From a virus (Duplodnaviria; Caudoviricetes), in IMG/VR virus record IMGVR_UViG_3300037781_000006, positions 11,107-75,106 of that record: DNA of 64,000 nt; one strand, 5' to 3'. A program made the position numbers and the translations under genes. Within the stretch, counting starts at the first letter, position 1, and each line of letters starts with the position of its first letter. The notes under the pieces were generated by a model that was not told the origin of the DNA, searched no databases, and saw nothing but the letters and a program-made list of their open reading frames with translations. Shown one piece after another: positions 10,713 to 54,002 of this stretch.

Positions 10713-12029
10713 TTATTTCTCCGGGATGAGGTAGACCTCACCGTATGTGACTGCATCGAGGTATCCATCGTAGACGTTCTCATCAGGAACGAACCAGATG
10801 GTCTCCCAGTCAGGTTTGGGGGGAATTGATACACACAGATCGGTGAAGATGACAAGAGCTTCAGGATTGATCTCTGCCACACGCTTGTAAACTGGGTGCA
10901 GAGACGTACCACCACCAGACATCACATGGATGTTGTCGAGAGTCTCATCCTCACGGAAGACTTTCTCGAATTGGATCTGGGTGTCCCACAAGATGACAGT
11001 CATCAGAGTGGGATTCAGCTTCTCTTTCAGTGTCTTAGCGGAAGCCAAGAACTGACGCTTCTGTGTGCTCGTGATGGAACCAGACACATCCAGTGCGTAA
11101 ACCAGATGAGTCAGACGGTTCTTCCGGCCACGCTTCGGGTACTTACCCTTGAGCCGAAGTTCACCTTTCCGTTCACGACGAGAGGGACGCATGAAGGTAC
11201 GTTTCCCACCACTCAGAGGATCGGTGAGGTAGTCTTCGAAGATCTCCTCGTAGCTGGCCTTCTTGATCCAGACAGTTTTCCCTTCGGTTCTCAGGATCTC
11301 CTGAGTTCCTCCGGGCTGATCACCAGCCAGCTTGCCATTCTTGACAGCTTCTTGGCGTTCTTGCTCGTTCTCTTGGATCTGCTGCTGAAGGTCTTTGCCA
11401 GTCCCTTCAAGGGCTTGCTTGACCAGATCTTCGATCTGATCGGTGCTGGGAGCACCACTGGAACCATGGGAATTGGGATCCTTCTTCCGTTCTTTGTGGA
11501 CGATGGCGTAGATGGCATCGGTCCCCATTCCACGGAAGCGTTCGTCGATCTGCATACCCTTGCCACCGAAGTCAGTGGGAGCACCACCCCTTAGAGTGGT
11601 AACAAACCCATCTTCATCACAGGTCAGGTTGATCACATGATCACCTGCGATGTTGTAGGATTCAGGATCTTTCTCCTTGCCTCGTTCGAGGTGGTTCAGG
11701 ATCAGGTGCCAGATCTCATGTGCGATCACGGTCTTCCGTTCTTCATGGGCCAGTTGGTCCCACCACTGAGGGTTGAAGAAGATGAAGCCGTGACCAGCAC
11801 AGGCTGTCGGTATTGCAGAGACCCAGTAGAAGGAGATGTCGAACACGTAACGACTCATGCCTTTGAAGCGTTTGTCTGTGATCAACATCTCCTCCACATA
11901 GCTCCTCAATGTGTCGTCAGCACTGAGAAGATCACCGCCAGAGGCCGTCGAGGTCATCCCCGTCGAGATCTGGGTCATGTCCGGTTGGTTGGACGTATTT
12001 CCCCCAACCTGATTCGACGTGGTTTCCAT
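10713..12029 (-). CDS. DUF2201-type metallopeptidase-vWA protein (N4 gp25-like)
   Basis: AHEIWH HExxH; MIDAS DVSGS; GGGTS; downstream of the MoxR-type ATPase. Confidence 0.85.
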   Translation of the reverse strand: METTSNQVGGNTSNQPDMTQISTGMTSTASGGDLLSADDTLRSYVEEMLITDKRFKGMSRYVFDISFYWVSAIPTACAGHGFIFFNPQWWDQLAHEERKTVIAHEIWHLILNHLERGKEKDPESYNIAGDHVINLTCDEDGFVTTLRGGAPTDFGGKGMQIDERFRGMGTDAIYAIVHKERKKDPNSHGSSGAPSTDQIEDLVKQALEGTGKDLQQQIQENEQERQEAVKNGKLAGDQPGGTQEILRTEGKTVWIKKASYEEIFEDYLTDPLSGGKRTFMRPSRRERKGELRLKGKYPKRGRKNRLTHLVYALDVSGSITSTQKRQFLASAKTLKEKLNPTLMTVILWDTQIQFEKVFREDETLDNIHVMSGGGTSLHPVYKRVAEINPEALVIFTDLCVSIPPKPDWETIWFVPDENVYDGYLDAVTYGEVYLIPEK

Positions 12030-41210: not shown

Positions 41211-41873
41211 ATGGCATATGGACCCGGATGGAAATCCCTACAGGTTGCAAACCCCAACGTGAGTGGACTGATGTCTCTCACCCAAGAGGGGTTCAACAAC
41301 GCTGGGGAAGCAGGACAGAATGTTCTAGCAAACTACGACGCAGGACAGAAGCTCAAGAATGATGCTGCTGTCGCTCAGGAACTGGCTGGGATCGAAACCC
41401 CGGAACAGTTGGATGCGTGGTTGAAACAGGGTGGTCTGAACGGACGAAACGTCTCTGGAGCCTCCATCGAAGCCATGATGGGACACCAACAGCGTGTTCG
41501 AGCGGCTGCTGCTGCACTGGCCTCAGAAGAACGGGCTGCTGCTCGTTCTGCAAGCTCTGGTGCATCCCGTTCTCGCTCTGGCGCTTCTCGGAGTCGTTCT
41601 GGTTCAGGGACTGGAACCACGACTGAAGAGGGTGTTTCGACTGATGCTCTGCTTCGTCTGGCTCTGGGTGAACCTGCTACGGCTCCTGCACCTGTTGCTG
41701 GGGAAACCACTGCTGTGGTTCGTCCTCAAGCTCGACCGACACAAACTGCACCTGTACCGTCTGGACCTGCTCCGTTCGTTCCGGGAGCAACATCTACGGC
41801 TGATTCTCCGGACCTCACCAGTCTGAGTGATGCAGATCTTGCGGCTGAAATCGCTGCACTCCAAGGAGGTTGA
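41211..41873 (+). CDS. gp51-like ejection protein, N-terminal part (220 aa)
   Basis: W..LQVANPN.SG start; Cys-free; in the gp51 position; AAGGA RBS. Confidence 0.55.
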   Translation: MAYGPGWKSLQVANPNVSGLMSLTQEGFNNAGEAGQNVLANYDAGQKLKNDAAVAQELAGIETPEQLDAWLKQGGLNGRNVSGASIEAMMGHQQRVRAAAAALASEERAAARSASSGASRSRSGASRSRSGSGTGTTTEEGVSTDALLRLALGEPATAPAPVAGETTAVVRPQARPTQTAPVPSGPAPFVPGATSTADSPDLTSLSDADLAAEIAALQGG

Positions 41874-41876
41874 ACC

Positions 41877-43196
41877 ATGACCGAAGAAGAGAAACAGGCT
41901 CGCCTCCAAGCTCTGCTGGCAGAACAGGCACGTCGTCAGCAAGCTGCACCCGCTGCTGCCCCTCAAGCGGCTCCTGCTGCTGCACCTTCTGCATCGGTGG
42001 CTCCTCCGCCCCAACGTGACATTGGTGCTGTGGTTTCGGCACTGGTGGCCAATGGTGGTATGGATACCGACCAGAACCGTGCAGTGAACTTCGCTTTCGA
42101 GCTTCAGGATCGTGATCGTGAAGCACAAGAACGTGCTCGTCGGGAACAGGAACGTCTGGCTGAAGAAGCTCAGTCTGAAGGCGTGGCTGATCTTGCTCTT
42201 GGTTTGGCTCTGAACCCGGAAGCTGATCCTGACAATCGTGCTGCTCTTTTGACTGATCCTGCTCTGGCGAACATGAGCGCGAATGATCGTCTGAATGCTC
42301 TGATCCGGACTGGTGAGATCTTTGATGGTCCTCTGGCTGATGTGGTCAATCCTGAAGTCGAACCTGATGCAATCTCTCGTTCTGCTGCTGAAGCGTATCG
42401 AGCACGGGAGAGTGCTCGTATCGAGAACTCTCTGCAAGCACGTCTGCTTGAGCAAGCACAGGAATTCCAAGGGGATCCGGTGAATGCACTGATCCGTGAT
42501 CTGGAAATCGGTCGTGATGGGGAAACCCGTGACGACTTTGATCGTCTGGATCTAGAACGTCGGATCGAAGCCATCTCCACGGAGTATGGTATTCCGCCTG
42601 AGCGAGTTGCTGTGGCAATGCACCAGAACTTCATTCGGGATCCAGACAATGACTGGGTGCCCTTCTTCGACATGACGCGGAACACCATCGAAAACCGTTT
42701 CCCGGAAGACAAGGTTCGAGACTTCATTGAGACGAACCTGAGTCCTGAAGCGATTGATGCTCATTACAATCGTGTCCGTTCGAATCAAGAGAACTCTCGT
42801 CGTCTGGGTCAGCTTGAGACTGAACTGACAGATCTTCGTGTCACTGCTGAACGGTATCGTCAGATTGGTCAGGAAATTCCTCCTGAACTCGAAGTGGCGA
42901 TTGCTGACACCCAGTCTCGCATTCGGACTTTCGGACAACTTCCTCCGGAACCAGAGCCAGAACCTGAACGTGATCCGAACCCGAGTGCTGAAGTCAGTGA
43001 TGACCGTATTCGGGAAGCGATCATCTTCGGGAACAACTACTTCACGCAAGCTGGGATCATGCCTCATGTCATTCACATGCGTCAGAACCCTGATCAGCGT
43101 GCTGCGACTCTGGAACGGATCCAAGCCCACATCCAGAATGACCAGAATCTGACGGCAGACCAGAAGAACATCCTCTGGGCAGTTGCCAACCAGTGA
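41877..43196 (+). CDS. gp51-like ejection protein, C-terminal part or separate ejection protein (439 aa)
   Basis: Same frame as the previous ORF, with its own AAGGAGG RBS; Cys-free. Confidence 0.55.
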   Translation: MTEEEKQARLQALLAEQARRQQAAPAAAPQAAPAAAPSASVAPPPQRDIGAVVSALVANGGMDTDQNRAVNFAFELQDRDREAQERARREQERLAEEAQSEGVADLALGLALNPEADPDNRAALLTDPALANMSANDRLNALIRTGEIFDGPLADVVNPEVEPDAISRSAAEAYRARESARIENSLQARLLEQAQEFQGDPVNALIRDLEIGRDGETRDDFDRLDLERRIEAISTEYGIPPERVAVAMHQNFIRDPDNDWVPFFDMTRNTIENRFPEDKVRDFIETNLSPEAIDAHYNRVRSNQENSRRLGQLETELTDLRVTAERYRQIGQEIPPELEVAIADTQSRIRTFGQLPPEPEPEPERDPNPSAEVSDDRIREAIIFGNNYFTQAGIMPHVIHMRQNPDQRAATLERIQAHIQNDQNLTADQKNILWAVANQ

Positions 43197-43244: not shown

Positions 43245-46200
43245 ATGACAGACTCCCTTAAAAAAGTGTTGGCGTCGGTTCCAGAGAATGCTCTGAATCC
43301 GAATGCTACTCCTGCTGCTCCCTCAGTTGAGGAGGTTCTGACGTATCAGCAGAATGCTCCCACTCCAGTGGAGATGGAACTTCAAGGGATCCGGGATCGG
43401 TATCGTTCGGAAGTGGACGATACTGTGGTCAATCCGGAACTGGTGGAACGTCTTCGAGATCCTGATTTCGTCGAAGCTCTTGCTGTCTCTCGTCGAGAAG
43501 GCAACGATCTGACCAATGAAGGTTTCGGTCGTGACCTCTTCGAGATGGACTATGCTGGTTTGTATGATCGGTATGGTCGAGATGTGGCCAATGAAGCATG
43601 GCGAGTCCAACAGGGTCGTGCATCTGACTATGATGCACGGACTGGTGAACGAACCACTGGTCAGAAAATCGGAGATACTGCTCTCGATTTCATCTCTGGT
43701 TTCACTTCGATGTCTGGCAACACATTTGGTCAGGCATTCTCTGCTGGTATCTCTGCACTGGATCCCAATCGAACTGTTCGTGAAGGTGCTGTGGCAACTG
43801 CTCAGACCACTCAGGATTTGTCGGACTGGATCACCAGTTTCCAGTCTGATGAGCGTCAGGCTTTCGACCGGATCATGAACATTGAGTCTGGTCTGGACAG
43901 CAACGACAACGATGATCGGTTTCAGCAAGACATTGAGAACGGTGACTCTGTGTTCGCTGCTTCTCTGAAGAACATTGGTCGGGACATCCTCAGTACGACT
44001 GAACGTCTGATCGACAACCCATCGACGATTGCACCTTTGGTGGCTGAGAGCCTTGGTTCACTTGGACCTTCTGCCAAGATCGCTTCTGGTGGTTCCCGTC
44101 TGCTCAGTGGTGCTACGGCTCGTGCTGGAGGCAGTCAGACTGCCCAGCGTACTGCTGGGACTCTCGGTGCTGTAAGTGGTATCGGTCTTTCTGAAGCCTC
44201 TGGGGCCTATTCTCAGACCGTGAATGAAGTCATGGCAATGCCATTCGACTCTCTGGCTGAGAACTCTGATACCTATCGTCAACTTGTGGCAGATGGGATG
44301 TCTCCTGAAGATGCTCGAACTCAGGTAGCCGGTATGGCTGGTGAACGGACGTTTGTCCGTCAACTTCCCACTGCTGCTCTCATTGGTTTGGTTTCGTCGA
44401 AGTTTGAAACTGGACCGATGCGTTCGTTCCAAGGTGTTCCTGTCACTCAGAACCTTCGGACCATGGCATCTCAAGCTCTCGAAGAATCTCTTCAGGGTGG
44501 CACTGGGACTTTCAACACCAACGTGGGTGTTCGAGACTTTGCTGATGAGAACCGGAACCTGAGCCAAGGTGTCGGATCTGACATGGTGACTGGTGCCATC
44601 GCAGGTGCTGGTATGGCTGGTGTCACTGGTGCTCCGAGCACGACTGTGAATGCTCTCCGTGGTTTGCTGGGTGAGACCCAGTACAACGATCCTCTGCGTC
44701 AGGACATCGTTGGTGCATCCCCTGCTCGTAGGGCTGTACAGACGGCAGGAGAGGCTCTCTCGCCCATCGTGGATGCTGCTGCACCTGTGGTGAATGCTGC
44801 TCGTGAGCGGACCTCTGCTCTTGCTGGACGGGTATCTGAAGGTGTTCAGGAATATGCAGCCCGTCCGTCGTCCAAGGAAGTCACCCAGTCTGTGGAAGCT
44901 GCGGTGAACATTACCGAGGGTTTGCGTGAAGCGGTGGCAACAGGACAGCTTGAGGATACGGTTGCACAGATCGTATCACAGCCTGATACAGACGTTCCGT
45001 CTGCCAGCTTCACTGATGTGGCTGGTGGAAACCGGAGCCTGATGGACAACATCACTGGGATCACTGCGAAACTGGGATCGAAGAAGTTCCGTCCTTCGAC
45101 TGCTGACACTGCATATGCTGCTGCTCAGTATCAGAAGCTGCGTTCTGTGGTGGGTGCTCTTCCGAAAGATCTCCAGACTGAAGCTGGTCGTATCCTGTCT
45201 TCCAAACTGGTTCAGGAACTCTCTGCCAAGGCTGAGAAGCTCGATCTGAACCGGAACCCGGAAGATGCAGATCCGATCACGACTCTGAATGTGGCAAAGA
45301 CGAACCCTGCTAACGTCAATCCTGATGTGGCTGACAAGATCCTTGAGGAGTCTGGTGAAAACCTCACTCCGGAAGAAGCACGGTATGTTCGTGTGGCTTC
45401 GAAGATCGGTCGTATCGTCAACCGGAACGTCGAAAAGCAGGTTGAGATCCGGACCAATGAGAACATCAATCTCACTCAGGCGTCCCGTCCGAAGAAACAG
45501 GATCTGACCGTGGAAGGAGTATCACGGCAGATCCATGCTGAAGGGAAGACCGATGCCAATCTTCGGGCAAAGTATCGTTCCATCAACGACTTCGCACGGG
45601 ACATCCTGAGTGCTGTGCAATCCGGAGAACAGACCGGGGCCTATCCTCCGGACGCTACAGTCATCAACCAAAAAGGACAGGTAGTGCCTGTTCGTCAGGT
45701 CATCCAAGAGATGGCCAACTTTGCCCAGCACATGAAGAACAAGGTGCAGGCACTGAACGAGTCTATCGCTGATGGTTACACCACTCAGGGTGGACTTCGT
45801 GGTGGTAAGCTCAAGGACTTCGATGGTTTGGTGAACGGGAAGTTCCAGAACTCTTCGTTGTCTTCCAATGGTTTGCGTGGTGTTCGGTATTCCCCGGACA
45901 ACGCCAACAGTGTTGCATTTGCGCAACAGGTTGCTCAGGACCAGAACGATCTGATCGAGGTCTACAATACCCTGCTGCAAGAGTTCCCTGAGACCTTCGA
46001 AGGTTTTGAAGCTATCGAGCCTGTTGTTCTCACTCCAGCAACAGTTTCTGGGGAAACTACCCAAAATGACACTGATTCGTCCGTGGAAACAGACGAGCAA
46101 CCAACGGGTGTCGAGGAGTCTTCCGACGCCCCGGCGGAGGAAGCGACGAGCACCAGCGAGGATCTTCAAAACCCAACGGCTGACGAAGAGGTGAGCAGTT

Positions 46201-49200
46201 CCGAAGACGGAGTAGACGAGACCGGAGCGCAAGCGACGGACGAGACTACGACGGGTGAGGAAGTGGGAACCGATGAGTTGGCTGATGCCACTCAGGAAGA
46301 CCGTGACCTGTTCAACCTGCTGAGTGATTCCAAGAACTGGGATCCGATTGAACGTGTTCGTGTGAAGGCTATCACGAACCAAGGACGTACTCAGACCCGT
46401 GATCTCATCGAGAAGAACTTCGGACCCAAGCTGCTGAAGCGTGTCCGTCAGGTGACGATCTATCCGAAGTCTGTGGATGATGGATGGGGTTACGCATGGA
46501 CTCCTGAAGGTCAAAGGACAGGTCAGATCTTCCTGTCTGAAGCCATGTTCGATGCTGAAGGCAATCTGACCAAGGAAGGTCGGAATGTGGTGATCCATGA
46601 GATGGGTCACATCGTTGACTTCACCAATCGTTTCTACAGTGACGATCCGGGATCCATCTCGGAACGCAATGCTTTCCAGATCGGTGGAGTCATCGACCAA
46701 GAATGGCAGGCGATGGATCACAACGGGAATGAATTCCGTCAGAAACGGTACGAATACGTGGAGAGTTTTGGTCAGGAAGGTGATACTGATCAACGTGCAG
46801 CGGAACTGTTCGCTGTTCTGGGTGAATACTTCTTCGCCCCGAACTCTCCGATGCTGGATAATGCACCGGAAACCCTTGCTCTGATGGAGGAACTATATGG
46901 CCCGCGCCCCCAAGCAACTCGAACTCCCGCTGAGTCCACCAGTACCGAAGACGCCAGTACCTCCGACGGAGGAGATACCAGCATCGAAGGACAATCCGAC
47001 GAAGTAACGGAAGCTGGTCTGGGTGAGACCACTGGAGCAACTCCGGTGGTTACTCATCCCATGCTGGATGAGCACTTCGAACGTGGACAAGAAGCACCTC
47101 TGGACAGCATTACTGATCTGGAGAATGCTGAATTCAATCAGGAACATGCTTCGATCATTCGTGAACTGCTGCCTGAAGTGGCAGAAACCATGAACCAACG
47201 CCTTCAGAAGAAGGTACGTGATGGTGGAATGGTGAAGAAGATCGTCGATCACATCCGTGATGGACGTGTCATGTTCAAGCGTTTCAAAGCTGGTGTCTTT
47301 GTGAACCCAGAGACTGGCACATACGATGCTCGTGTGCTGGATATGGCTGCCGTCGTACTGACGGATTTCATCGCCACTGCGGCTCCCAAAGATCCCAACA
47401 AGCTGGAAGACACTCTGGAAGCACTGGGGGTTACGATCAACGAGATCTCCGATGGTTCCCTGAATGCTGCTCTGAACGGCATTCCTCCGAGCCAACTGAA
47501 GGATCAACTGGCTTCGGACTTCATGCGTCTCATGAACCTGCGTGAGAAAGAAACCTCTGGTGTGGGTGATCTGGAAGGGATCGCACAAGGTTTCGCTGCT
47601 GAGATGATCACTGTGATGGATCAGATGGGTATCGTGGATGTCACGACTCTGGATCTGAACCGTGATGCTGTGGAATCCGAGGCCACCACTGTTCTGGTGA
47701 ATACGGATCGTCTGAAGACTTTTCAGAAGCGGATCCGGTCTGGAACTCGTCAGGGTGTTCCCAACACTGTCCGGGAAGGGATCTTCCAAGACAAACGTGA
47801 GACCTACTCCATCGGTGAGAAGATCAAGGGTGTCTCCTCTCGTCAGTCTCGTGGCAACGTGGCTCTCTCTGAGCTTGAGCAACGTGCTCTGAAGAAGATG
47901 CAGGATACCCCGCATTACGTGAACGAAGCTCGTCTCCGCCTTCTGGAAGCTCTGGGAGATGGTCCTCTGATGCGGATGCTGGGATGGACTGATGGTGTGG
48001 AAGAGATGGGTCATCCTGTCCTGCGTCGCTCTGCACTGGGCAAGAACGCCTCCATCGACAAGAACATCCGGGAAGTCATCGAGATGATCGGTGCTCTGGC
48101 TGGAGATGTGTCTCAGGCCATCTACTATCCTGTGGGGATCACGAAGGTGGGTCGTCACCAGTATCAGGGACCGAACCCCCAATCGAACAAGCTGCTGCGT
48201 TTCCTCGCCACTCCGACGTGGAGTAACCTGAACATGGAATCCAAGGAAGACATGGATGCCTTCTGGCTCGGTGTTGCTCAGGCTTCTGGTTTGGCGAAGG
48301 TGGAGAAGGTGGATCAGGCTGCACTGCTTGAAACCATCAAGGAAGACTTTGCAGAGGATTTCGGTCCTGCTGTGGTCATGATGAAGGAACTCTTGGAAGG
48401 AGGTGCTTTCGATGCAGATGCTTTCGCAACTGCTGTGGGAACTGTCGGCCCTGAAGTCTTGGGTGCAATCGAGGCTGTTGCCTCTATGGAGATTGCTCAG
48501 GAAAACGGCCAGACGGAATTCAGTACATCTCTCAGCTTTGAACTGGATGGTTTGACCAACGGTGCAGCCAACATGATGGTCAACTTCGGCCATGGTCTGT
48601 TCACTCCTGATGAGTGGCAGAACCTGCGTCGTGTGGGTCTGTACCTTGGTGAGAAGGGGATGACCGTCAACCAGTTCTTCAAGGACAAAACCAACCTCGA
48701 TCTTTACGAAACCGTGGGTAAGGTCGGTGATCGGATGCTGGCTTTGGGTGGTAATCGCCTGAAACCATGGCAGAAAGAACAGCGTGCTGCTGCACAACGT
48801 CTGGCTGCATCCATCGGTAACTTCGAGATGGTGAAGAACTCCGACGGAACCTACGACTACAAGATGACCCGGAACACGGCCAAGAACCCGATGACGAAAG
48901 TCAACTATGGTTCTGGTGTGCTGGGTGTTGCTGTCGGTGTGGCAGATGACATGCTGCTGGCCTTCTATGAGAAGCTCCAGACTCTGGGTGAAGAGACCAC
49001 CATGGACGATGTGTTCTATGCTGGTTTCGAGGCAGACATGAAAACCATGGGTCTGGAACTGCCTGCCAATTTCGATCAGAACTTCGTCTTCCCGAACGAT
49101 CAGGTGGAGGCTTTCCGGAAGTCCATCATGTTCACGATTGGTCGTGTACTGACTGACTCGACTCGTGAAGTGCTGGGGAACCGGATCCAAGAACTGAATG

Positions 49201-52200
49201 ACATGCTGGTTCTCTCGACCAACATCCAGAACAACTACCTTCAGAAACTCTTCGACAAGAAAGTCGATGAGATGGCAGAACGTCTGGCTCGTGAAGGTGT
49301 CATCAAGCGGAACAAGAAAGGTGTCCCGAACAAGGGTGAGATCCCTCGTGCAGAGTGGAAGAAGCTGGAAGATGAACTGGGTCAACTGGGACCGATCTTC
49401 CGGTCAGATGACCAGACTCTGGCAATCGGTGGCTTCGAGAAGAAGCTGACTGATTTGTTCCTGTCGTCGAACTATGACGAAGAACTCCGCCAGCCTGCAA
49501 GGATGCGTCGTCCTGATGAGGTGGGTGTGAAAGCCATTCCGTTCTCTGTGATCGGTACTGGCGACGCCATGATGATGAACCTCATCTTCGGTTCTGAAGG
49601 AGCACCCAACGATGTGCTGGGTATTTTCGATGGTTTGGATGTCCCAGTCGGGAAGGTGAAGGAATACGCTCCCTTCGTGAACCAGCAGGTTCTGAAGTCG
49701 TGGGATCGTGATGTCCTCTCGATGCCGATTGCGAACTTCCAAGGTTTCCTGAATTCTGTGGAAGATCAGGCACTTCTGAAAGAAGCTGAAGCTGAAGTGA
49801 TCGGGAACTTCAAGAAAGAGACCGTTCAGACTTCCAGTGCAGCAGATCTCCTGAGCCAGATGGAACGTCGTCTGCGTGAGAACCGTGCTCGGAAGAAAGT
49901 CATGAAGCAGATGGCTGTGTCTGTCGATCAGATGGGTGGTTCTGACGTTGGTTTCACTCGTGATGGTGAGACTTGGGACTTCCATACTGTGAACCAGCGG
50001 ATCGACCGTGAGATGGAAGGCCGGGATCCTGATGCCCAAGAGCAAGTGACTGCTCCTGTCCGTGTTCTGTCTGGTAAAGCTGTGTTGGAAAACACTCGTT
50101 GGACTCAGGCTCAGAAGAAGGTGGTGGAGATCCTGAAGCCTCTCATGGGTGATACCCGTGTGGTCTTCGGTACTCTGGACCAACTGAACCAGTGGCGTGC
50201 AGATCATGTCGCTCAGGATGGTGTCGTCCTGAAAGCCAAGGGTCAGTACGATGCAGCGAACGATATCGTCTTCATGACGAAATCCTCTGGTGAAACCCTG
50301 CTTCACGAGATGGTTCACGCTGCCACGTACAACAAGGTTCTGGCTCACTACCAAGGTCAGCCCAACGATGCTGTGGCACGTCTGGAAGATCTTATGGCTC
50401 AGTTCTTGGAACTGGATGGTGGTCAGAAGATCCGGGAAGCACAAGCTGCCATCAACCGTCGTCTGGTGAAGAATACTCCTGTGGCAAATGCCAATGCTCT
50501 CAATGAGTTCATGGCCTATGCTCTGTCGTCTTCTCAGGTCCGTCAGAAGCTGGAAGGGACGCAAGCGAATATGCTTGCAAACCTGAAAAGCAAGGTAATT
50601 CGCTTGCTGCGTCGGATGATGGGTGGCGTTCCGGAGGATATGTTCTCTCATGTGGTCTTCAACACTCGGGTTCTTGGTGGACCTCCGAGTGATGGTGGAG
50701 GCAATGGTTCTGGTGGAGATGATGGAGGGGACGGTGGTCCGTCTGAGTCTTCGGATCCGTTCGGTGAATTCACCAACTACTGGATCCAGAACATCCGGGA
50801 GTACATGGAGGGTCTTGGTCAGACTGGTGATCCGAAACTGATGAAAACCTCGCTCGATCTGTCTCGTGCGAAGAAGGTTATGGAAAACCTCCGTCAAGCT
50901 GGGATGCTTCGGAACAACAAGGACAAGGCCACGTTCAAGGCGATCTACGGTATCGTGCTGTCTGACATGAAGCTGGACAGCAATGCTCTGATCGGTCTGA
51001 CGAAGGTCTTTGGTCATGTGGAAGAGAATCTGACTGCTGAGATGTTCGGTGACGGCTCTGAAGCTGGTAACACCTACTCTGCTGTGCTGAATGCTCTGCG
51101 TGAGTCCAAGGAACCGAGCCATGCTGTGGCTGTCCTGTTTGCTCTGAGCCAGACCTCTCAGAAATTCCGGGATGCTCTGGAGCAGATCCCTGCACCGGAA
51201 GGTGGTCCTGTTGGTGATGGTTCCATCAATGACTTCCTGACCAAAGCTGCTGCATTCTCGATGCAGAAGCTCACTGGTTCGATGGACACGAACAAGGTTC
51301 CGGCAGATGTTTTGGCCACGGTTGCTGGTACGATCATCGACCATGATGTCGAGCGTGAATTCCGAGTGCTGAAAGGTGCTACGGAAACTCTCACTGCCAT
51401 GGATGATTACGTCTCTGGGAAGTTCACCCAGACGGCAGAGATGATGCGTGCAAAGAACCGTGAGGTTCAGGCTTCGACCCGTTCGGATACTCGGAAATAC
51501 CTCGTGGCTGCTGCTACGTTTGCCACGAACTATCTGGACAAGCCGGGTACGGATCTGACGAACCAAGCCATCAAGAAGGTCACTCACATGGGGATTCCGT
51601 TCCTCTCCATGGTTCCTGTCCGGGAATTGGTGGCTGAGATGATCGGTACGGATGCTCAGAACAAGAATGTGGTGGCTCTGCTGGACCGTGTGAACGCCTC
51701 TGTGTCTGGTATGCGTCAGGCTTTCCGGGAAGATCTTCCGGGAATCTTGGATCGTTCGTTCAAGGAGTCTCCGACCAAGGAACAGTGGACTTCCATGTTC
51801 AGGACTCTGGCGAAGACTGATTTCACCAGCATCGTGGATCTGGAGAACATGCAGGGTTCCATGAAGTATCTGGAAGAGTCGGGTACTCGTCAGGCTGAGA
51901 TGCAGCGGATCGAGACCCAGCTTCAACAGTCTCTCACTGGTTCGAACTTCCAAGATGCCATCGAGAAAGGTCGTCAACTGGCTGCCTTCATGAACGGAAA
52001 GTCTGTCGGTAAGCTCTTGGTTCGGAACGCATATGCGATTGGGAAGAACCTCGAAGGTGATGTCGATCAGGCAACGATTGATCTGCTGGATCGGTGGATC
52101 ACTCTGGAAGCTGTGAATCAGATGGATCCTCAGACTCGGGAAGAGACTGTCCGTCTGTGGCAGGAAGATCCTGTGGGCATCCTCGGTATTGTGGCATATC

Positions 52201-54002
52201 TGCAACAGTTGAACGAGGCTGAAGAGGCCAAGACCATCTCGGAGCAAGCCCGACTGAACGGCTACAAGGGGTATATCCCCAACGAAGGAGCCAAGAACGT
52301 CCACATCACTGTGGCGATGGATGAAGCTGAAGGTGACATGGAGCGGAAGGGCTACAAGAAGCTCAACGTGCCGTACACTGGGGAGACTGACTCGATCTTC
52401 CCCCGGTCCTACTACGTGTCCACTGTACGTCGTCAGGGGATCTATTCTCAGGGTGTGGTGCAGAACGTGGCCATGACCTATCGCGGTGTGGACATGAACA
52501 CGGGTCTGACCGTGAAGAATGACACTGCTGGTTTCATCTCTGGTGAAGATGGTTCGGTTCAGCGGATCATGGAGAACCAACTGGATGACTCTGTGGAACT
52601 GGAGAACGATCAGGAAGCCCTGATGCCTGTCTTTGGTCCTGATGGTGACATCATTGGTTTCGAGCGGTCCATCTCTCAGGAGATGATCGACACTCATCTG
52701 GGTCGTGAAGAGAACCTTGCTGTGATGCTGGGTGCTTGGCAGGGTCGTCAGATCGAAGAAGGTCTGGCTGACCAGTACAACAAGCAGTTGTCTGATGAAC
52801 TGAAGCGGATCTGGGACAACCGGGAAGCTGGTGATGAGGCAACCTTCATCGACCTGAGCAAGTCGGATGATCCGATCTACAAGGACTCGTGGAACATCAT
52901 CCCTCAGTCCACCAAGATGTACATGGAAAGCATCTTCGGTGAAGATGGAGTGATGGTGCCCAAGTCGATGGTGAACCTCTCCGTGGGCTACAGGGAGTTC
53001 TCCATGGCTGATATGTGGTCTGGGAAGACTCGCCTACCCAAGCCTGTACAGGCTGCTGTGAAGGGCACCACAGAGCGTCTGCTGGGGACCAAGGCTATGC
53101 GTGTGCTGACTGGTGGTGAAGAGATCCTTCAGGGTGTCGTATCGACGGCCAAGGATATCATCGTCATTCGGTCTCTCGTGGTTCCTGCTGCAAACCTCCA
53201 TGCCAACGTCATTCAGTTGGCTACTCGGGGTGTGCCTACGAAAACCATCCTGAAGAGTTTCCGGAACAAGCTCTCGGAAGTGGAGGAGTACAACAAGAAC
53301 CGGACGAAAGTCATTGAACTGGAAGCGAAAAAGATGCTTCTGGCGAAGAATGATCGTCAGCGTCAGATCATTGATGACAAGATCCGAGTGATCGAAGACC
53401 TGAACCAGAAGATGAGCATTGCTCCTATGCTGGAAGCTGGTGCCTACAAGCAGTTGTCTGAGGGTATCACTGACATGGACGTGGATATCTCGTCTGGTCG
53501 TCTGGGTGACTACATGGAAGCTCTGGCGAACCGAGTTCATCCGAAGCTGGGTGGTCTGGCTGAAGTGGGATTGGTGTCGAAGTCCACGAAGATGTATCAG
53601 GTGGCGAACCGTGCCACTCAGTATGGGGACTTCTTGGCTAAGTCGATCTACTACGACCACCTGATTTCTCAGGGACTTAGCGAGGATCAAGCTCTGGCTC
53701 AGATGAACGAGGAATTCGTCAACTTCAGTGCTCTTCCGGGTCGTACTCGCTCCGCTTTGGAGGGATATGGTCTGATGTGGTTCATGGCCTTCAAGCTCCG
53801 GATCACGAAGATTGCTTTGCAGCAACTTCGTGATAACCCGGTTCGTGCTCTGGCAGTGAATACGTTCACCGACGTTGGATCTCCGGTTGGAGACAACATT
53901 CTGTCGGTGATCGCTGGAGGTCGTTTGGATTACGCCACGGGCTTCGAGATGCTGTTCGATGCTCCCGAACTGAACCCGTGGGTAAACCTGATGAGCGACT
54001 AA
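43245..54002 (+). CDS. Virion-encapsidated RNA polymerase (N4 gp50-like, 3585 aa)
   Basis: No Cys seen; TKVGR, motif A FELDGLTNG (D1768), motif B RNTAKNPMTKVNYGSG, motif C IFDG (D2129). Confidence 0.97.
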   Translation: MTDSLKKVLASVPENALNPNATPAAPSVEEVLTYQQNAPTPVEMELQGIRDRYRSEVDDTVVNPELVERLRDPDFVEALAVSRREGNDLTNEGFGRDLFEMDYAGLYDRYGRDVANEAWRVQQGRASDYDARTGERTTGQKIGDTALDFISGFTSMSGNTFGQAFSAGISALDPNRTVREGAVATAQTTQDLSDWITSFQSDERQAFDRIMNIESGLDSNDNDDRFQQDIENGDSVFAASLKNIGRDILSTTERLIDNPSTIAPLVAESLGSLGPSAKIASGGSRLLSGATARAGGSQTAQRTAGTLGAVSGIGLSEASGAYSQTVNEVMAMPFDSLAENSDTYRQLVADGMSPEDARTQVAGMAGERTFVRQLPTAALIGLVSSKFETGPMRSFQGVPVTQNLRTMASQALEESLQGGTGTFNTNVGVRDFADENRNLSQGVGSDMVTGAIAGAGMAGVTGAPSTTVNALRGLLGETQYNDPLRQDIVGASPARRAVQTAGEALSPIVDAAAPVVNAARERTSALAGRVSEGVQEYAARPSSKEVTQSVEAAVNITEGLREAVATGQLEDTVAQIVSQPDTDVPSASFTDVAGGNRSLMDNITGITAKLGSKKFRPSTADTAYAAAQYQKLRSVVGALPKDLQTEAGRILSSKLVQELSAKAEKLDLNRNPEDADPITTLNVAKTNPANVNPDVADKILEESGENLTPEEARYVRVASKIGRIVNRNVEKQVEIRTNENINLTQASRPKKQDLTVEGVSRQIHAEGKTDANLRAKYRSINDFARDILSAVQSGEQTGAYPPDATVINQKGQVVPVRQVIQEMANFAQHMKNKVQALNESIADGYTTQGGLRGGKLKDFDGLVNGKFQNSSLSSNGLRGVRYSPDNANSVAFAQQVAQDQNDLIEVYNTLLQEFPETFEGFEAIEPVVLTPATVSGETTQNDTDSSVETDEQPTGVEESSDAPAEEATSTSEDLQNPTADEEVSSSEDGVDETGAQATDETTTGEEVGTDELADATQEDRDLFNLLSDSKNWDPIERVRVKAITNQGRTQTRDLIEKNFGPKLLKRVRQVTIYPKSVDDGWGYAWTPEGQRTGQIFLSEAMFDAEGNLTKEGRNVVIHEMGHIVDFTNRFYSDDPGSISERNAFQIGGVIDQEWQAMDHNGNEFRQKRYEYVESFGQEGDTDQRAAELFAVLGEYFFAPNSPMLDNAPETLALMEELYGPRPQATRTPAESTSTEDASTSDGGDTSIEGQSDEVTEAGLGETTGATPVVTHPMLDEHFERGQEAPLDSITDLENAEFNQEHASIIRELLPEVAETMNQRLQKKVRDGGMVKKIVDHIRDGRVMFKRFKAGVFVNPETGTYDARVLDMAAVVLTDFIATAAPKDPNKLEDTLEALGVTINEISDGSLNAALNGIPPSQLKDQLASDFMRLMNLREKETSGVGDLEGIAQGFAAEMITVMDQMGIVDVTTLDLNRDAVESEATTVLVNTDRLKTFQKRIRSGTRQGVPNTVREGIFQDKRETYSIGEKIKGVSSRQSRGNVALSELEQRALKKMQDTPHYVNEARLRLLEALGDGPLMRMLGWTDGVEEMGHPVLRRSALGKNASIDKNIREVIEMIGALAGDVSQAIYYPVGITKVGRHQYQGPNPQSNKLLRFLATPTWSNLNMESKEDMDAFWLGVAQASGLAKVEKVDQAALLETIKEDFAEDFGPAVVMMKELLEGGAFDADAFATAVGTVGPEVLGAIEAVASMEIAQENGQTEFSTSLSFELDGLTNGAANMMVNFGHGLFTPDEWQNLRRVGLYLGEKGMTVNQFFKDKTNLDLYETVGKVGDRMLALGGNRLKPWQKEQRAAAQRLAASIGNFEMVKNSDGTYDYKMTRNTAKNPMTKVNYGSGVLGVAVGVADDMLLAFYEKLQTLGEETTMDDVFYAGFEADMKTMGLELPANFDQNFVFPNDQVEAFRKSIMFTIGRVLTDSTREVLGNRIQELNDMLVLSTNIQNNYLQKLFDKKVDEMAERLAREGVIKRNKKGVPNKGEIPRAEWKKLEDELGQLGPIFRSDDQTLAIGGFEKKLTDLFLSSNYDEELRQPARMRRPDEVGVKAIPFSVIGTGDAMMMNLIFGSEGAPNDVLGIFDGLDVPVGKVKEYAPFVNQQVLKSWDRDVLSMPIANFQGFLNSVEDQALLKEAEAEVIGNFKKETVQTSSAADLLSQMERRLRENRARKKVMKQMAVSVDQMGGSDVGFTRDGETWDFHTVNQRIDREMEGRDPDAQEQVTAPVRVLSGKAVLENTRWTQAQKKVVEILKPLMGDTRVVFGTLDQLNQWRADHVAQDGVVLKAKGQYDAANDIVFMTKSSGETLLHEMVHAATYNKVLAHYQGQPNDAVARLEDLMAQFLELDGGQKIREAQAAINRRLVKNTPVANANALNEFMAYALSSSQVRQKLEGTQANMLANLKSKVIRLLRRMMGGVPEDMFSHVVFNTRVLGGPPSDGGGNGSGGDDGGDGGPSESSDPFGEFTNYWIQNIREYMEGLGQTGDPKLMKTSLDLSRAKKVMENLRQAGMLRNNKDKATFKAIYGIVLSDMKLDSNALIGLTKVFGHVEENLTAEMFGDGSEAGNTYSAVLNALRESKEPSHAVAVLFALSQTSQKFRDALEQIPAPEGGPVGDGSINDFLTKAAAFSMQKLTGSMDTNKVPADVLATVAGTIIDHDVEREFRVLKGATETLTAMDDYVSGKFTQTAEMMRAKNREVQASTRSDTRKYLVAAATFATNYLDKPGTDLTNQAIKKVTHMGIPFLSMVPVRELVAEMIGTDAQNKNVVALLDRVNASVSGMRQAFREDLPGILDRSFKESPTKEQWTSMFRTLAKTDFTSIVDLENMQGSMKYLEESGTRQAEMQRIETQLQQSLTGSNFQDAIEKGRQLAAFMNGKSVGKLLVRNAYAIGKNLEGDVDQATIDLLDRWITLEAVNQMDPQTREETVRLWQEDPVGILGIVAYLQQLNEAEEAKTISEQARLNGYKGYIPNEGAKNVHITVAMDEAEGDMERKGYKKLNVPYTGETDSIFPRSYYVSTVRRQGIYSQGVVQNVAMTYRGVDMNTGLTVKNDTAGFISGEDGSVQRIMENQLDDSVELENDQEALMPVFGPDGDIIGFERSISQEMIDTHLGREENLAVMLGAWQGRQIEEGLADQYNKQLSDELKRIWDNREAGDEATFIDLSKSDDPIYKDSWNIIPQSTKMYMESIFGEDGVMVPKSMVNLSVGYREFSMADMWSGKTRLPKPVQAAVKGTTERLLGTKAMRVLTGGEEILQGVVSTAKDIIVIRSLVVPAANLHANVIQLATRGVPTKTILKSFRNKLSEVEEYNKNRTKVIELEAKKMLLAKNDRQRQIIDDKIRVIEDLNQKMSIAPMLEAGAYKQLSEGITDMDVDISSGRLGDYMEALANRVHPKLGGLAEVGLVSKSTKMYQVANRATQYGDFLAKSIYYDHLISQGLSEDQALAQMNEEFVNFSALPGRTRSALEGYGLMWFMAFKLRITKIALQQLRDNPVRALAVNTFTDVGSPVGDNILSVIAGGRLDYATGFEMLFDAPELNPWVNLMSD

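Follow-up and report, generated by a model that had tools for sequence, protein, structure and literature searches.

The 64,000-nt stretch of viral DNA analyzed here (the window), which corresponds to positions 11,107 to 75,106 of the IMG/VR record IMGVR_UViG_3300037781_000006 (Duplodnaviria; Caudoviricetes), encodes a virion RNA polymerase (vRNAP) of the type represented by gp50 of coliphage N4. Within this polypeptide lies a module of about 205 amino acids (aa) that matches the MtfA family of zinc metallopeptidases, is predicted to adopt a fold shared with anthrax lethal factor (LF), and occupies the tether from the N-terminal domain (NTD) to the polymerase domain, where related phages carry varied and exchangeable modules. 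We consider it probable that the module is an accessory, exchangeable peptidase of the MtfA(M90)/LF type that would be ejected as part of the vRNAP and would serve a host-directed role rather than obligatory self-processing.

The original prediction, made from the letters of the window alone, described a globular domain of roughly 200 residues with the HExxH signature of a zincin, placed between two D/E/T/S-rich linkers. Each of the motifs that it cited resides at the claimed position, namely HEMGH at residue 1118 and AELFA (E1187), together with the HEMVH at 2354 and NEFMA at 2420 of a second zincin. The span assigned to the insert (46041-47040; aa 933-1265) takes in linker 1, the domain and linker 2, whereas the folded part comprises only aa ~1013-1219. 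These limits were taken from a second AlphaFold2 (AF2) model, in which the module was folded with its linkers. The domain is a confident fold in AF2, and the flanking linkers are acidic and predicted to be disordered, with a predicted local distance difference test score (pLDDT) of 28-40 for linker 2.

The Pfam family Peptidase_M90 (PF06167, MtfA) matches aa 1081-1218 with E=2.4e-11, scoring 44.1 bits where the curated cut-off is 26.2, which is far above chance. This match takes in profile positions 119/120-242 of 243, which hold the catalytic half, and the N-terminal half of the profile is unmatched by sequence. A six-frame scan of the phage's own genome recovered Peptidase_M90 at 48.2 bits as the sole such domain in the phage. 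When the module was compared by sequence with solved structures, only two MtfA sequences were retrieved, marginally (E 0.07), with the HExxH and AE(L/C)FAVLxEYFF motifs paired in the alignments. The whole-vRNAP scan (E<=1) contained no Pfam match to the M34 (LF) or PPEP families. The same scan gave no polyvalent-metallopeptidase (MPTase) family for either zincin, its only relevant entries being M90 and a sub-threshold SprT-like match; this result is to be read as no other zincin family being listed. The SprT-like match (PF10263), the only one in the vRNAP, falls at the C-terminal HExxH and scores 17.7 bits against a cut-off of 25.6.

Structural modeling is consistent with this assignment at the level of the fold class. 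An AF2 model of the module, computed from a 12-sequence alignment, has a pLDDT of 92.6 and a predicted template modeling score (pTM) of 0.90. Comparison of this model with 48,161 chains using VIA-align identified the LF catalytic domain as the best structural neighbor (Z 10.8, root-mean-square deviation [rmsd] 3.1 Å over 152 residues), followed by PPEP-2 (Z 9.7), PPEP-3 (Z 9.1) and the LF-like domain of Certhrax (Z 9.0). The MtfA fold aligns with Z 8.5 and an rmsd of 3.8 Å over 146 residues (model 8-201 versus 3dl1 54-244). The top Foldseek matches are all LF and are weak, with a best E of 3.6e-3, and the closest predicted viral structures are MuF-like minor capsid proteins and 'large polyvalent' proteins, again weak (E ~1e-3). 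Modeling and alignment together thus support the anticipated zincin fold, which is of LF/MtfA type. As LF and PPEP score slightly above MtfA, the fold speaks for the class and not for M90 specifically; LF, PPEP and MtfA form one gluzincin structural group, within which a fold match does not single out M90.

The residues expected to bind zinc are invariant across the copies of the module. In Escherichia coli MtfA, the zinc ligands are provided by 148-HExxH-152 and 211-ExxA-214 (PMC13482132). The corresponding HExxH aligns with HEMGH in the module, and the E1187/A1190 motif, whose AELFA begins at aa 1186, aligns with the MtfA motif AECFAVLSEYFF, such that AECFAV in MtfA becomes AELFAV in the module, with the cysteine replaced. 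An iterated hidden Markov model (HMM) detected the module 49 times, in 47 of the 97 vRNAP homologues. H1118, E1119, H1122, E1153, E1187 and A1190 are invariant in all 49, and D1125 and F1189 are conserved in 48, while sampled copies share only 16-40% identity with the module of the window. The ratio of nonsynonymous to synonymous substitution (dN/dS), measured against the closest relative for which DNA is available (P0002), is 0.18 for the module, 0.19 for the NTD and 0.13 for the polymerase. Invariant motifs combined with purifying selection are the signature expected of a maintained metal site, which does not in itself prove proteolysis; on this pattern of conservation, the module is likely to be catalytically active.

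The surrounding gene is a vRNAP by several concordant measures. It matches PHROG 2206 ('virion RNA polymerase') with E=0 across aa 70-3584 and contains the Pfam domains vRNAP_dom (E=3e-43), vRNAP_dom_2 and N4_RNAP_helical, and its central part aligns by phmmer with the N4 mini-vRNAP (2po4; E=1.3e-66). This alignment places D1768 (FELDG, nt 48546-48548) opposite the motif A aspartate of N4, D1556 in full-length numbering, as the original prediction had proposed; the motif C aspartate is D2129. The protein also has the size of an N4-type vRNAP (~3500 aa), a T7-like core with both aspartates, a C-terminal zincin, a location in the late/structural block and a genome in the ~70-75 kb range. The NTD is homologous to that of N4 by sequence comparison, and a role in inner-membrane insertion would be carried over from N4 by analogy (PMC13434306). 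The positions of these elements are collected in Table 1.

Table 1. Positions within the window of the vRNAP gene and its predicted parts
Feature	Position	Strand	Basis
vRNAP gene (N4 gp50 type), 3585 aa, unbroken open reading frame (ORF), no Cys	43245..54002	+	ORF list, translation, PHROG, Pfam
N-terminal domain (NTD), aa 1-925	43245..46019	+	Conserved end mapped by BLAST/HMM over 97 homologues
Linker 1, aa 926-1012, acidic, Ser/Thr-rich, no Lys/Arg	46020..46280	+	Composition
Inserted MtfA/lethal-factor-like zinc-metallopeptidase module (predicted), aa ~1013-1219	46281..46901	+	Pfam PF06167, AF2, structure comparison
HEMGH (H1118, E1119, H1122), predicted zinc-binding/catalytic helix	46596..46610	+	Invariant 49/49, aligned with MtfA HExxH
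ELFA (E1187...A1190), gluzincin ExxA, predicted third zinc ligand	46803..46814	+	Invariant 49/49
Linker 2, aa 1220-1274, predicted disordered, ~50 aa	46902..47066	+	AF2 pLDDT 28-40
Polymerase domain, aa 1275-2235	47067..49949	+	phmmer to 2po4, motif positions
Universal C-terminal zincin CTD-C1 (HEMVH 2354, NEFMA 2420)	49992..50684	+	phmmer to N4 vRNAP

In N4, only a bare linker of ~100 residues separates the NTD, which extends to ~907-919, and the polymerase, which begins at ~1007 (PMC13434306, PMC13492108). Relative to N4, the module is an insert, placed in the NTD-polymerase tether. In each homologue we took the slot to be the interval that opens where the conserved NTD ends and closes where the polymerase begins. 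Among the 97 homologues, slot length ranges from 71 to 877 aa, with M90 present in 47 proteins and an ART-PolyVal ADP-ribosyltransferase (ART) in 34. The architectures observed are linker only; M90; ART; ART-M90; tandem M90-M90; one or more unassigned modules preceding M90 or ART; and two unassigned modules. Wherever M90 is present it is the last bead, with a linker 2 of 32-72 aa (44-65 in most carriers) between it and the polymerase, and in most carriers it is the sole module of the tether. Tandem peptidase modules are found in P0013 (aa 991-1198) and P0025 (aa 1134-1341), whose upstream copies belong to a distinct subtype that is also present in P0042; these three polymerases fall in different clades.

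Rough clustering of the slot modules suggests about 13 further families, two of which have an HExxH of their own. These two clusters, one comprising modules from P0073, P0074, P0079 and P0082 and the other from P0040 and P0066, are unmatched by the M90 HMM and may, from their motifs, represent other zincin types carried in the same tether. Separately, divergent slot modules in P0065 just reach the cut-off of the SprT-like family PF10263, at 25.9 bits.

The distribution of the module is patchy and narrow. Of 323 GenBank phage records with a vRNAP core, 23 contain a detectable M90, every one of them from a roseobacter phage. Cultivated carriers include DFL12phi1, which grows on Dinoroseobacter shibae, vB_RpoP-V13 and DSS3phi2 on Ruegeria pomeroyi, and Roseovarius Plymouth podovirus 1. 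The vRNAPs of representatives from seven other Schitoviridae genera have only one HExxH each, and neither the module HMM nor the ART HMM matches them, even with a limit of E<=10. No matches were obtained when IMG/VR was scanned with the module as a single sequence, and a profile scan of the same resource returned seven loci, six of them identical. A search of 1.84 billion protein representatives yielded three matches, two of which are vRNAPs; the third, P0098 (711 aa), is the only one outside the vRNAPs and is probably a spurious match, as it bears Ig-like domains. When a profile was used to look for stand-alone proteins of comparable length, one 160-aa fragment was all that emerged. Neither this search nor that of the 1.84 billion representatives revealed a cellular donor. 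Among those representatives, this M90 subfamily is found almost exclusively in vRNAPs. The original prediction had said that it would fail if the domain were universal at this position or lacked a zincin fold; the module is absent from N4 and from many relatives, and its modeled fold is that of a zincin.

Slot content does not follow the phylogeny of the polymerase. On a polymerase tree of 80 cores, which like the module tree was obtained by a quick LG+G4 search, at least 9 changes are needed to account for the presence of M90 and at least 17 for that of ART. Near-identical cores differ in slot content (P0025/P0030, P0048-50 and P0035/P0040). The nearest relative of the window protein after P0002, P0003, has a core that is 79% identical and linker sequences that are still recognizable, and its slot holds one unassigned module (X1) inside linker 1 and another (X2) in place of M90. 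The module tree pairs the M90 of the window with that of P0034, despite its different polymerase clade, and other pairs are equally discordant. Approximately unbiased (AU) tests reject congruence of the two trees in both directions (p=6.9e-58 with the module data and 3.6e-6 with the polymerase data). Tree comparison thus shows that modules have been exchanged horizontally between polymerase lineages, beyond mere loss, and the swappable slot envisaged at the outset is borne out by its length range, its varied occupants and this rejection of congruence. The two modules of P0003, the closest relative without the peptidase, lie at aa ~945-1087 (L001:4833-5261) and ~1135-1282 (L001:5403-5846); both are globular, and the former is seen again in P0079. 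No Pfam match was obtained for X1, for X2 or for the additional modules of P0048, and X2 also has no Atlas match.

The linkers that flank the module are distinctive in composition and, in the case of linker 1, in the unusually high conservation of silent sites. Linker 1 has a D+E fraction of 0.30, an S+T fraction of 0.30 and a K+R fraction of 0.00, and the stretches at aa ~931-1010 and ~1221-1250 consist of D/E/S/T/G/P/A/Q at 87-90%. Relative to P0002, synonymous divergence (dS) is 0.13 in linker 1 versus 0.53-0.76 in the folded regions, and third-position identity is 0.93-0.97 versus a gene median of 0.70. The linker DNA shared with P0003 (L001) is 92-97% identical, with 92-93% for linker 1, compared with 69-79% for the flanking coding sequence. 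Parts of the same linker DNA recur between the modules of P0048 (90-92% over 30-62 nt), whose core protein is only 48% identical, patches of linker 1 DNA in L014 showing 90-92% identity. Codon-shuffled linkers gave zero matches, and composition therefore does not account for the identity of the linker DNA.

Across distant gene pairs, high-identity patches are ~3.5-fold enriched in slots, in some pairs only, and other mosaic patches occur elsewhere in the vRNAP gene. We regard these data as evidence of recent recombination in or near the linkers, compatible with the linkers as junctions and short of proof. The idea of a universal conserved junction is only partly borne out, as the patches are limited to particular pairs and mosaic patches are present elsewhere too. 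A second region of high silent-site identity to P0002 lies within the NTD (window 45342-45614; aa 700-790), where third-position identity reaches 0.93, and a 230-nt stretch at the gene's 5′ end is 89% identical between P0003 and P0048. By nucleotide comparison, the vRNAP gene is mosaic beyond the slot.

A plausible course of action for the module follows from the model for N4, in which the NTD resides in the inner membrane while the polymerase and C-terminal domain (CTD) refold in the cytoplasm, held by the linker (PMC13434306). The module would travel within the ejected vRNAP polypeptide and, if the tether lies on the cytoplasmic side as in N4, would refold in the host cytoplasm beside the site of DNA entry. 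There it could act as a peptidase from the very start of infection, more likely on host proteins than on its own polypeptide. We infer delivery into the cell from homology with N4; catalysis and the substrate are inferences as well. A host-directed role is favored because the module is dispensable for the family and is usually the sole bead, leaving nothing to release; because it shows no positive association with ART, and every vRNAP already has a C-terminal zincin; and because its tandem copies are divergent and its horizontal turnover is rapid, like that of conflict effectors.

The alternative that fares best, which we nevertheless judge unlikely, is that the module is a cis-acting processing protease that cuts its own acidic linkers, either freeing the polymerase and CTD from the NTD or releasing cargo such as ART. 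Autoproteolysis is the main role proposed by Iyer et al. (2017; PMC5512222) for the metallopeptidases of polyvalent proteins, and the fixed place of M90 as last bead in all carriers, as well as a semi-conserved stretch that follows the MEExYG end of the domain, would suit an enzyme acting on the tether. However, N4 and most Schitoviridae function without the module, and the vRNAP of N4 is described as packaged unprocessed and as staying tethered (PMC5512222, PMC13434306). Most carriers contain no further module and hence no cargo to free, and any processing could be performed by the C-terminal zincin that all vRNAPs possess. The behavior of ART argues in the same direction: it occurs without M90 in 20 of 80 proteins, and across 14 phylogenetically independent pairs its gains and losses bear no relation to M90, the test being too small to reach significance; in the raw 2x2 table the two are negatively associated, with a Fisher odds ratio of 0.34. 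In the AF2 model of the module with its linkers, the linkers display only disorder, with no linker segment docked on the domain in an auto-inhibitory or substrate-like manner, which is a weak negative.

It is also conceivable, at a decidedly low probability, that the module is a binding domain and not a protease, sequestering a host regulator or defense protein at the entry site in the way that MtfA engages Mlc. The nearest sequence family, M90/MtfA, is known for anti-repressor binding (PMC13482132), and among the structural neighbors are LF-like domains that have lost catalysis, namely that of Certhrax and, at Z 7.8-8.1, the N-terminal domain of LF. The invariance of HExxH...ExxA in every copy, at identities as low as those given above, is hard to explain without selection for metal binding or catalysis. 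Slightly more doubtful still is a role in virion assembly, packaging or envelope passage, such as the trimming of virion or periplasmic proteins during ejection, for although the polypeptide crosses the periplasm, a Cys-free vRNAP fits that oxidizing compartment and the cell-wall hydrolase domain borne by an upstream ejection gene of relatives indicates that envelope-active enzymes travel along, most family members assemble and eject normally without the module and, to our knowledge, no M90/LF-type enzyme cuts peptidoglycan. The NTD-polymerase linker, moreover, is cytoplasmic in the N4 model (PMC13434306).

Several points weigh against a host-directed peptidase, and against the generality of the pattern described here. 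Solved MtfA is only marginally similar to the module in sequence (E 0.07), and the structural matches are middling (Z 8.5-10.8; Foldseek E ~4e-3). Coliphage N4, from which delivery and topology are extrapolated, itself has no module, and the constant location of M90 ~50 aa ahead of the polymerase would suit a cis role on the tether. For MtfA no physiological substrate is known, and it works by binding the repressor Mlc (PMC13482132); for this reason, motifs that are intact fall short of proof that host proteins are cleaved. The sample of 97 homologues was word-seeded and is biased toward relatives of the window phage, and the groups compared in the AU tests were picked after the quick LG+G4 trees had been seen.

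More broadly, we tentatively suggest that the tether of roseobacter-type N4-like vRNAPs could be a dedicated locus for effector display, a series of disordered acidic linkers that takes up enzyme beads free of Cys, multiplies or loses them and trades them between phage lineages, with the linker DNA perhaps serving as the recombination junction. The beads would comprise the M90 peptidase, ART, two or more further HExxH modules and about ten unassigned modules. If so, the ejected polymerase would carry, within a single gene, a polymorphic set of host-directed effectors for 'time zero', much as polymorphic toxins have variable tips. Proteins that enter with phage DNA precede phage gene expression and are consequently the only tools that a phage has against pre-existing defenses and for immediate takeover. 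The present case shows that the polymerase tether of a widespread marine phage group is modular, a probably active peptidase, an ART and many uncharacterized domains being swapped between lineages. The slot is a defined and tractable place to seek early effectors and their host targets with cultivable roseobacter phage-host pairs, and it would provide a natural example of foreign enzymes threaded through a phage tail within an ejected protein.

The second zincin cited in the original prediction is present at aa 2354. Residues 2269-2477 align by phmmer with residues 2130-2370 of the N4 vRNAP (E=8.6e-15), with both the HExxH and NEFMA motifs kept, and almost all of the 97 homologues have an HExxH at the corresponding position. 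The zincin of N4 CTD-C1 (residues ~2124-2375) has been published, both by Iyer et al. (2017; PMC5512222) and with the 2026 N4 structure (PMC13434306). By homology, the aa-2354 zincin is the universal N4 domain and no peculiarity of the window phage. We also considered the inserted module as a duplicate of the C-terminal zincin and rejected this origin, as hhalign returned a probability of 33% with only the HExxH helix aligned.

Relative to known systems, the module is in sequence closest to MtfA/Peptidase_M90 (PF06167; 3DL1, 3KHI and 9SRW), with which it shares the HExxH, the downstream ExxA and the AE(L/C)FAVLxEYFF motif. The spacing from the HExxH histidine to the downstream glutamate is 69 residues in the module versus 63 in MtfA, and the MtfA motif has a cysteine whereas the module has none at all. 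Furthermore, MtfA is a stand-alone cytoplasmic bacterial protein of ~265 aa, unlike the module, which is one bead in an ejected phage protein of 3585 aa. The LF catalytic domain (M34) and PPEP-1/2/3 have the same gluzincin arrangement of an HExxH helix and a downstream Glu helix, but they share only 14-18% identity with the module in structural alignments, and the module has neither the delivery nor the receptor domains of toxins; the likeness is confined to the fold class. Host-modifying enzymes that are packaged in the capsid and injected, such as T4 Alt, likewise act before phage gene expression, and ART modules fill the same slot in sister vRNAPs. However, T4 Alt is a separate internal protein and an ADP-ribosyltransferase, whereas the module is a domain of the ejected polymerase and a predicted peptidase.

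That zincin/MPTase domains occur in polyvalent proteins delivered with DNA, as the original prediction asserted, agrees with Iyer et al. (2017; PMC5512222). The proteins described there resemble the present one in that a zincin lies within a large multidomain protein delivered with phage DNA, although in our case transfer would follow from N4 ejection (PMC13434306). The same paper reports that ART and 'one or more' MPTases are fused to N4-like RNA polymerases, with Roseovarius Plymouth podovirus 1 as an example, and already makes both functional proposals, self-processing and host attack (PMC5512222). We find that the vRNAP of this podovirus (P0022) contains an ART and an M90 module. PF06167 is already listed on several of these vRNAPs in public precomputed annotations. 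Literature searches turned up no paper discussing an M90/MtfA domain in a phage virion protein, and the accessible portions of the literature text contain no mention of the M90/MtfA assignment, the location in the NTD-polymerase tether or the alternative slot occupants. Nor do those portions mention the patchy distribution, the conflict between module and polymerase trees, the silent-site conservation of the linkers or the exchange between lineages. The general theme has been known since 2017, and, as far as that text extends, what is newly documented is the exchange slot and its pattern of swapping. The value of the finding accordingly lies in the slot and its dynamics, a peptidase being expected within the polyvalent-protein framework.

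The source genome, that of a marine N4-like phage, is a metagenomic virus record that is complete at 75,106 bp and has direct terminal repeats, and its closest isolates are N4-like phages of Roseobacter-group bacteria, with ~60% identity in the polymerase core. ORFs upstream of the vRNAP match phrog_14527, 2646, 2220 and 2050, the usual ejection and structural genes of Schitoviridae. The gene at the position of N4 gp51 (window 41211-43196) is broken into two ORFs on the same strand, 220 and 439 aa long, which match the N-terminal (9-158) and C-terminal (328-627) parts of one 673-position profile, phrog_14527. Relatives have a single gene of 637-669 aa at this position, one of them with the cell-wall hydrolase domain mentioned above.

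Cysteine is absent not only from the vRNAP of the window but also from 91 of the 97 homologues (P0001-P0097), inserted modules included, and from the vRNAPs of all 8 other isolates examined (7 full-length and that of Shigella phage pSb-1). Unfolded passage across the oxidizing periplasm may be the cause of this absence, of which we found no mention in the 2026 N4 structure paper. In the record of Shigella phage pSb-1 (L019), the vRNAP is annotated as three consecutive coding sequences designated 'hypothetical protein' (gp103, gp102 and gp101), reflecting either a split gene or frameshift errors in the record.

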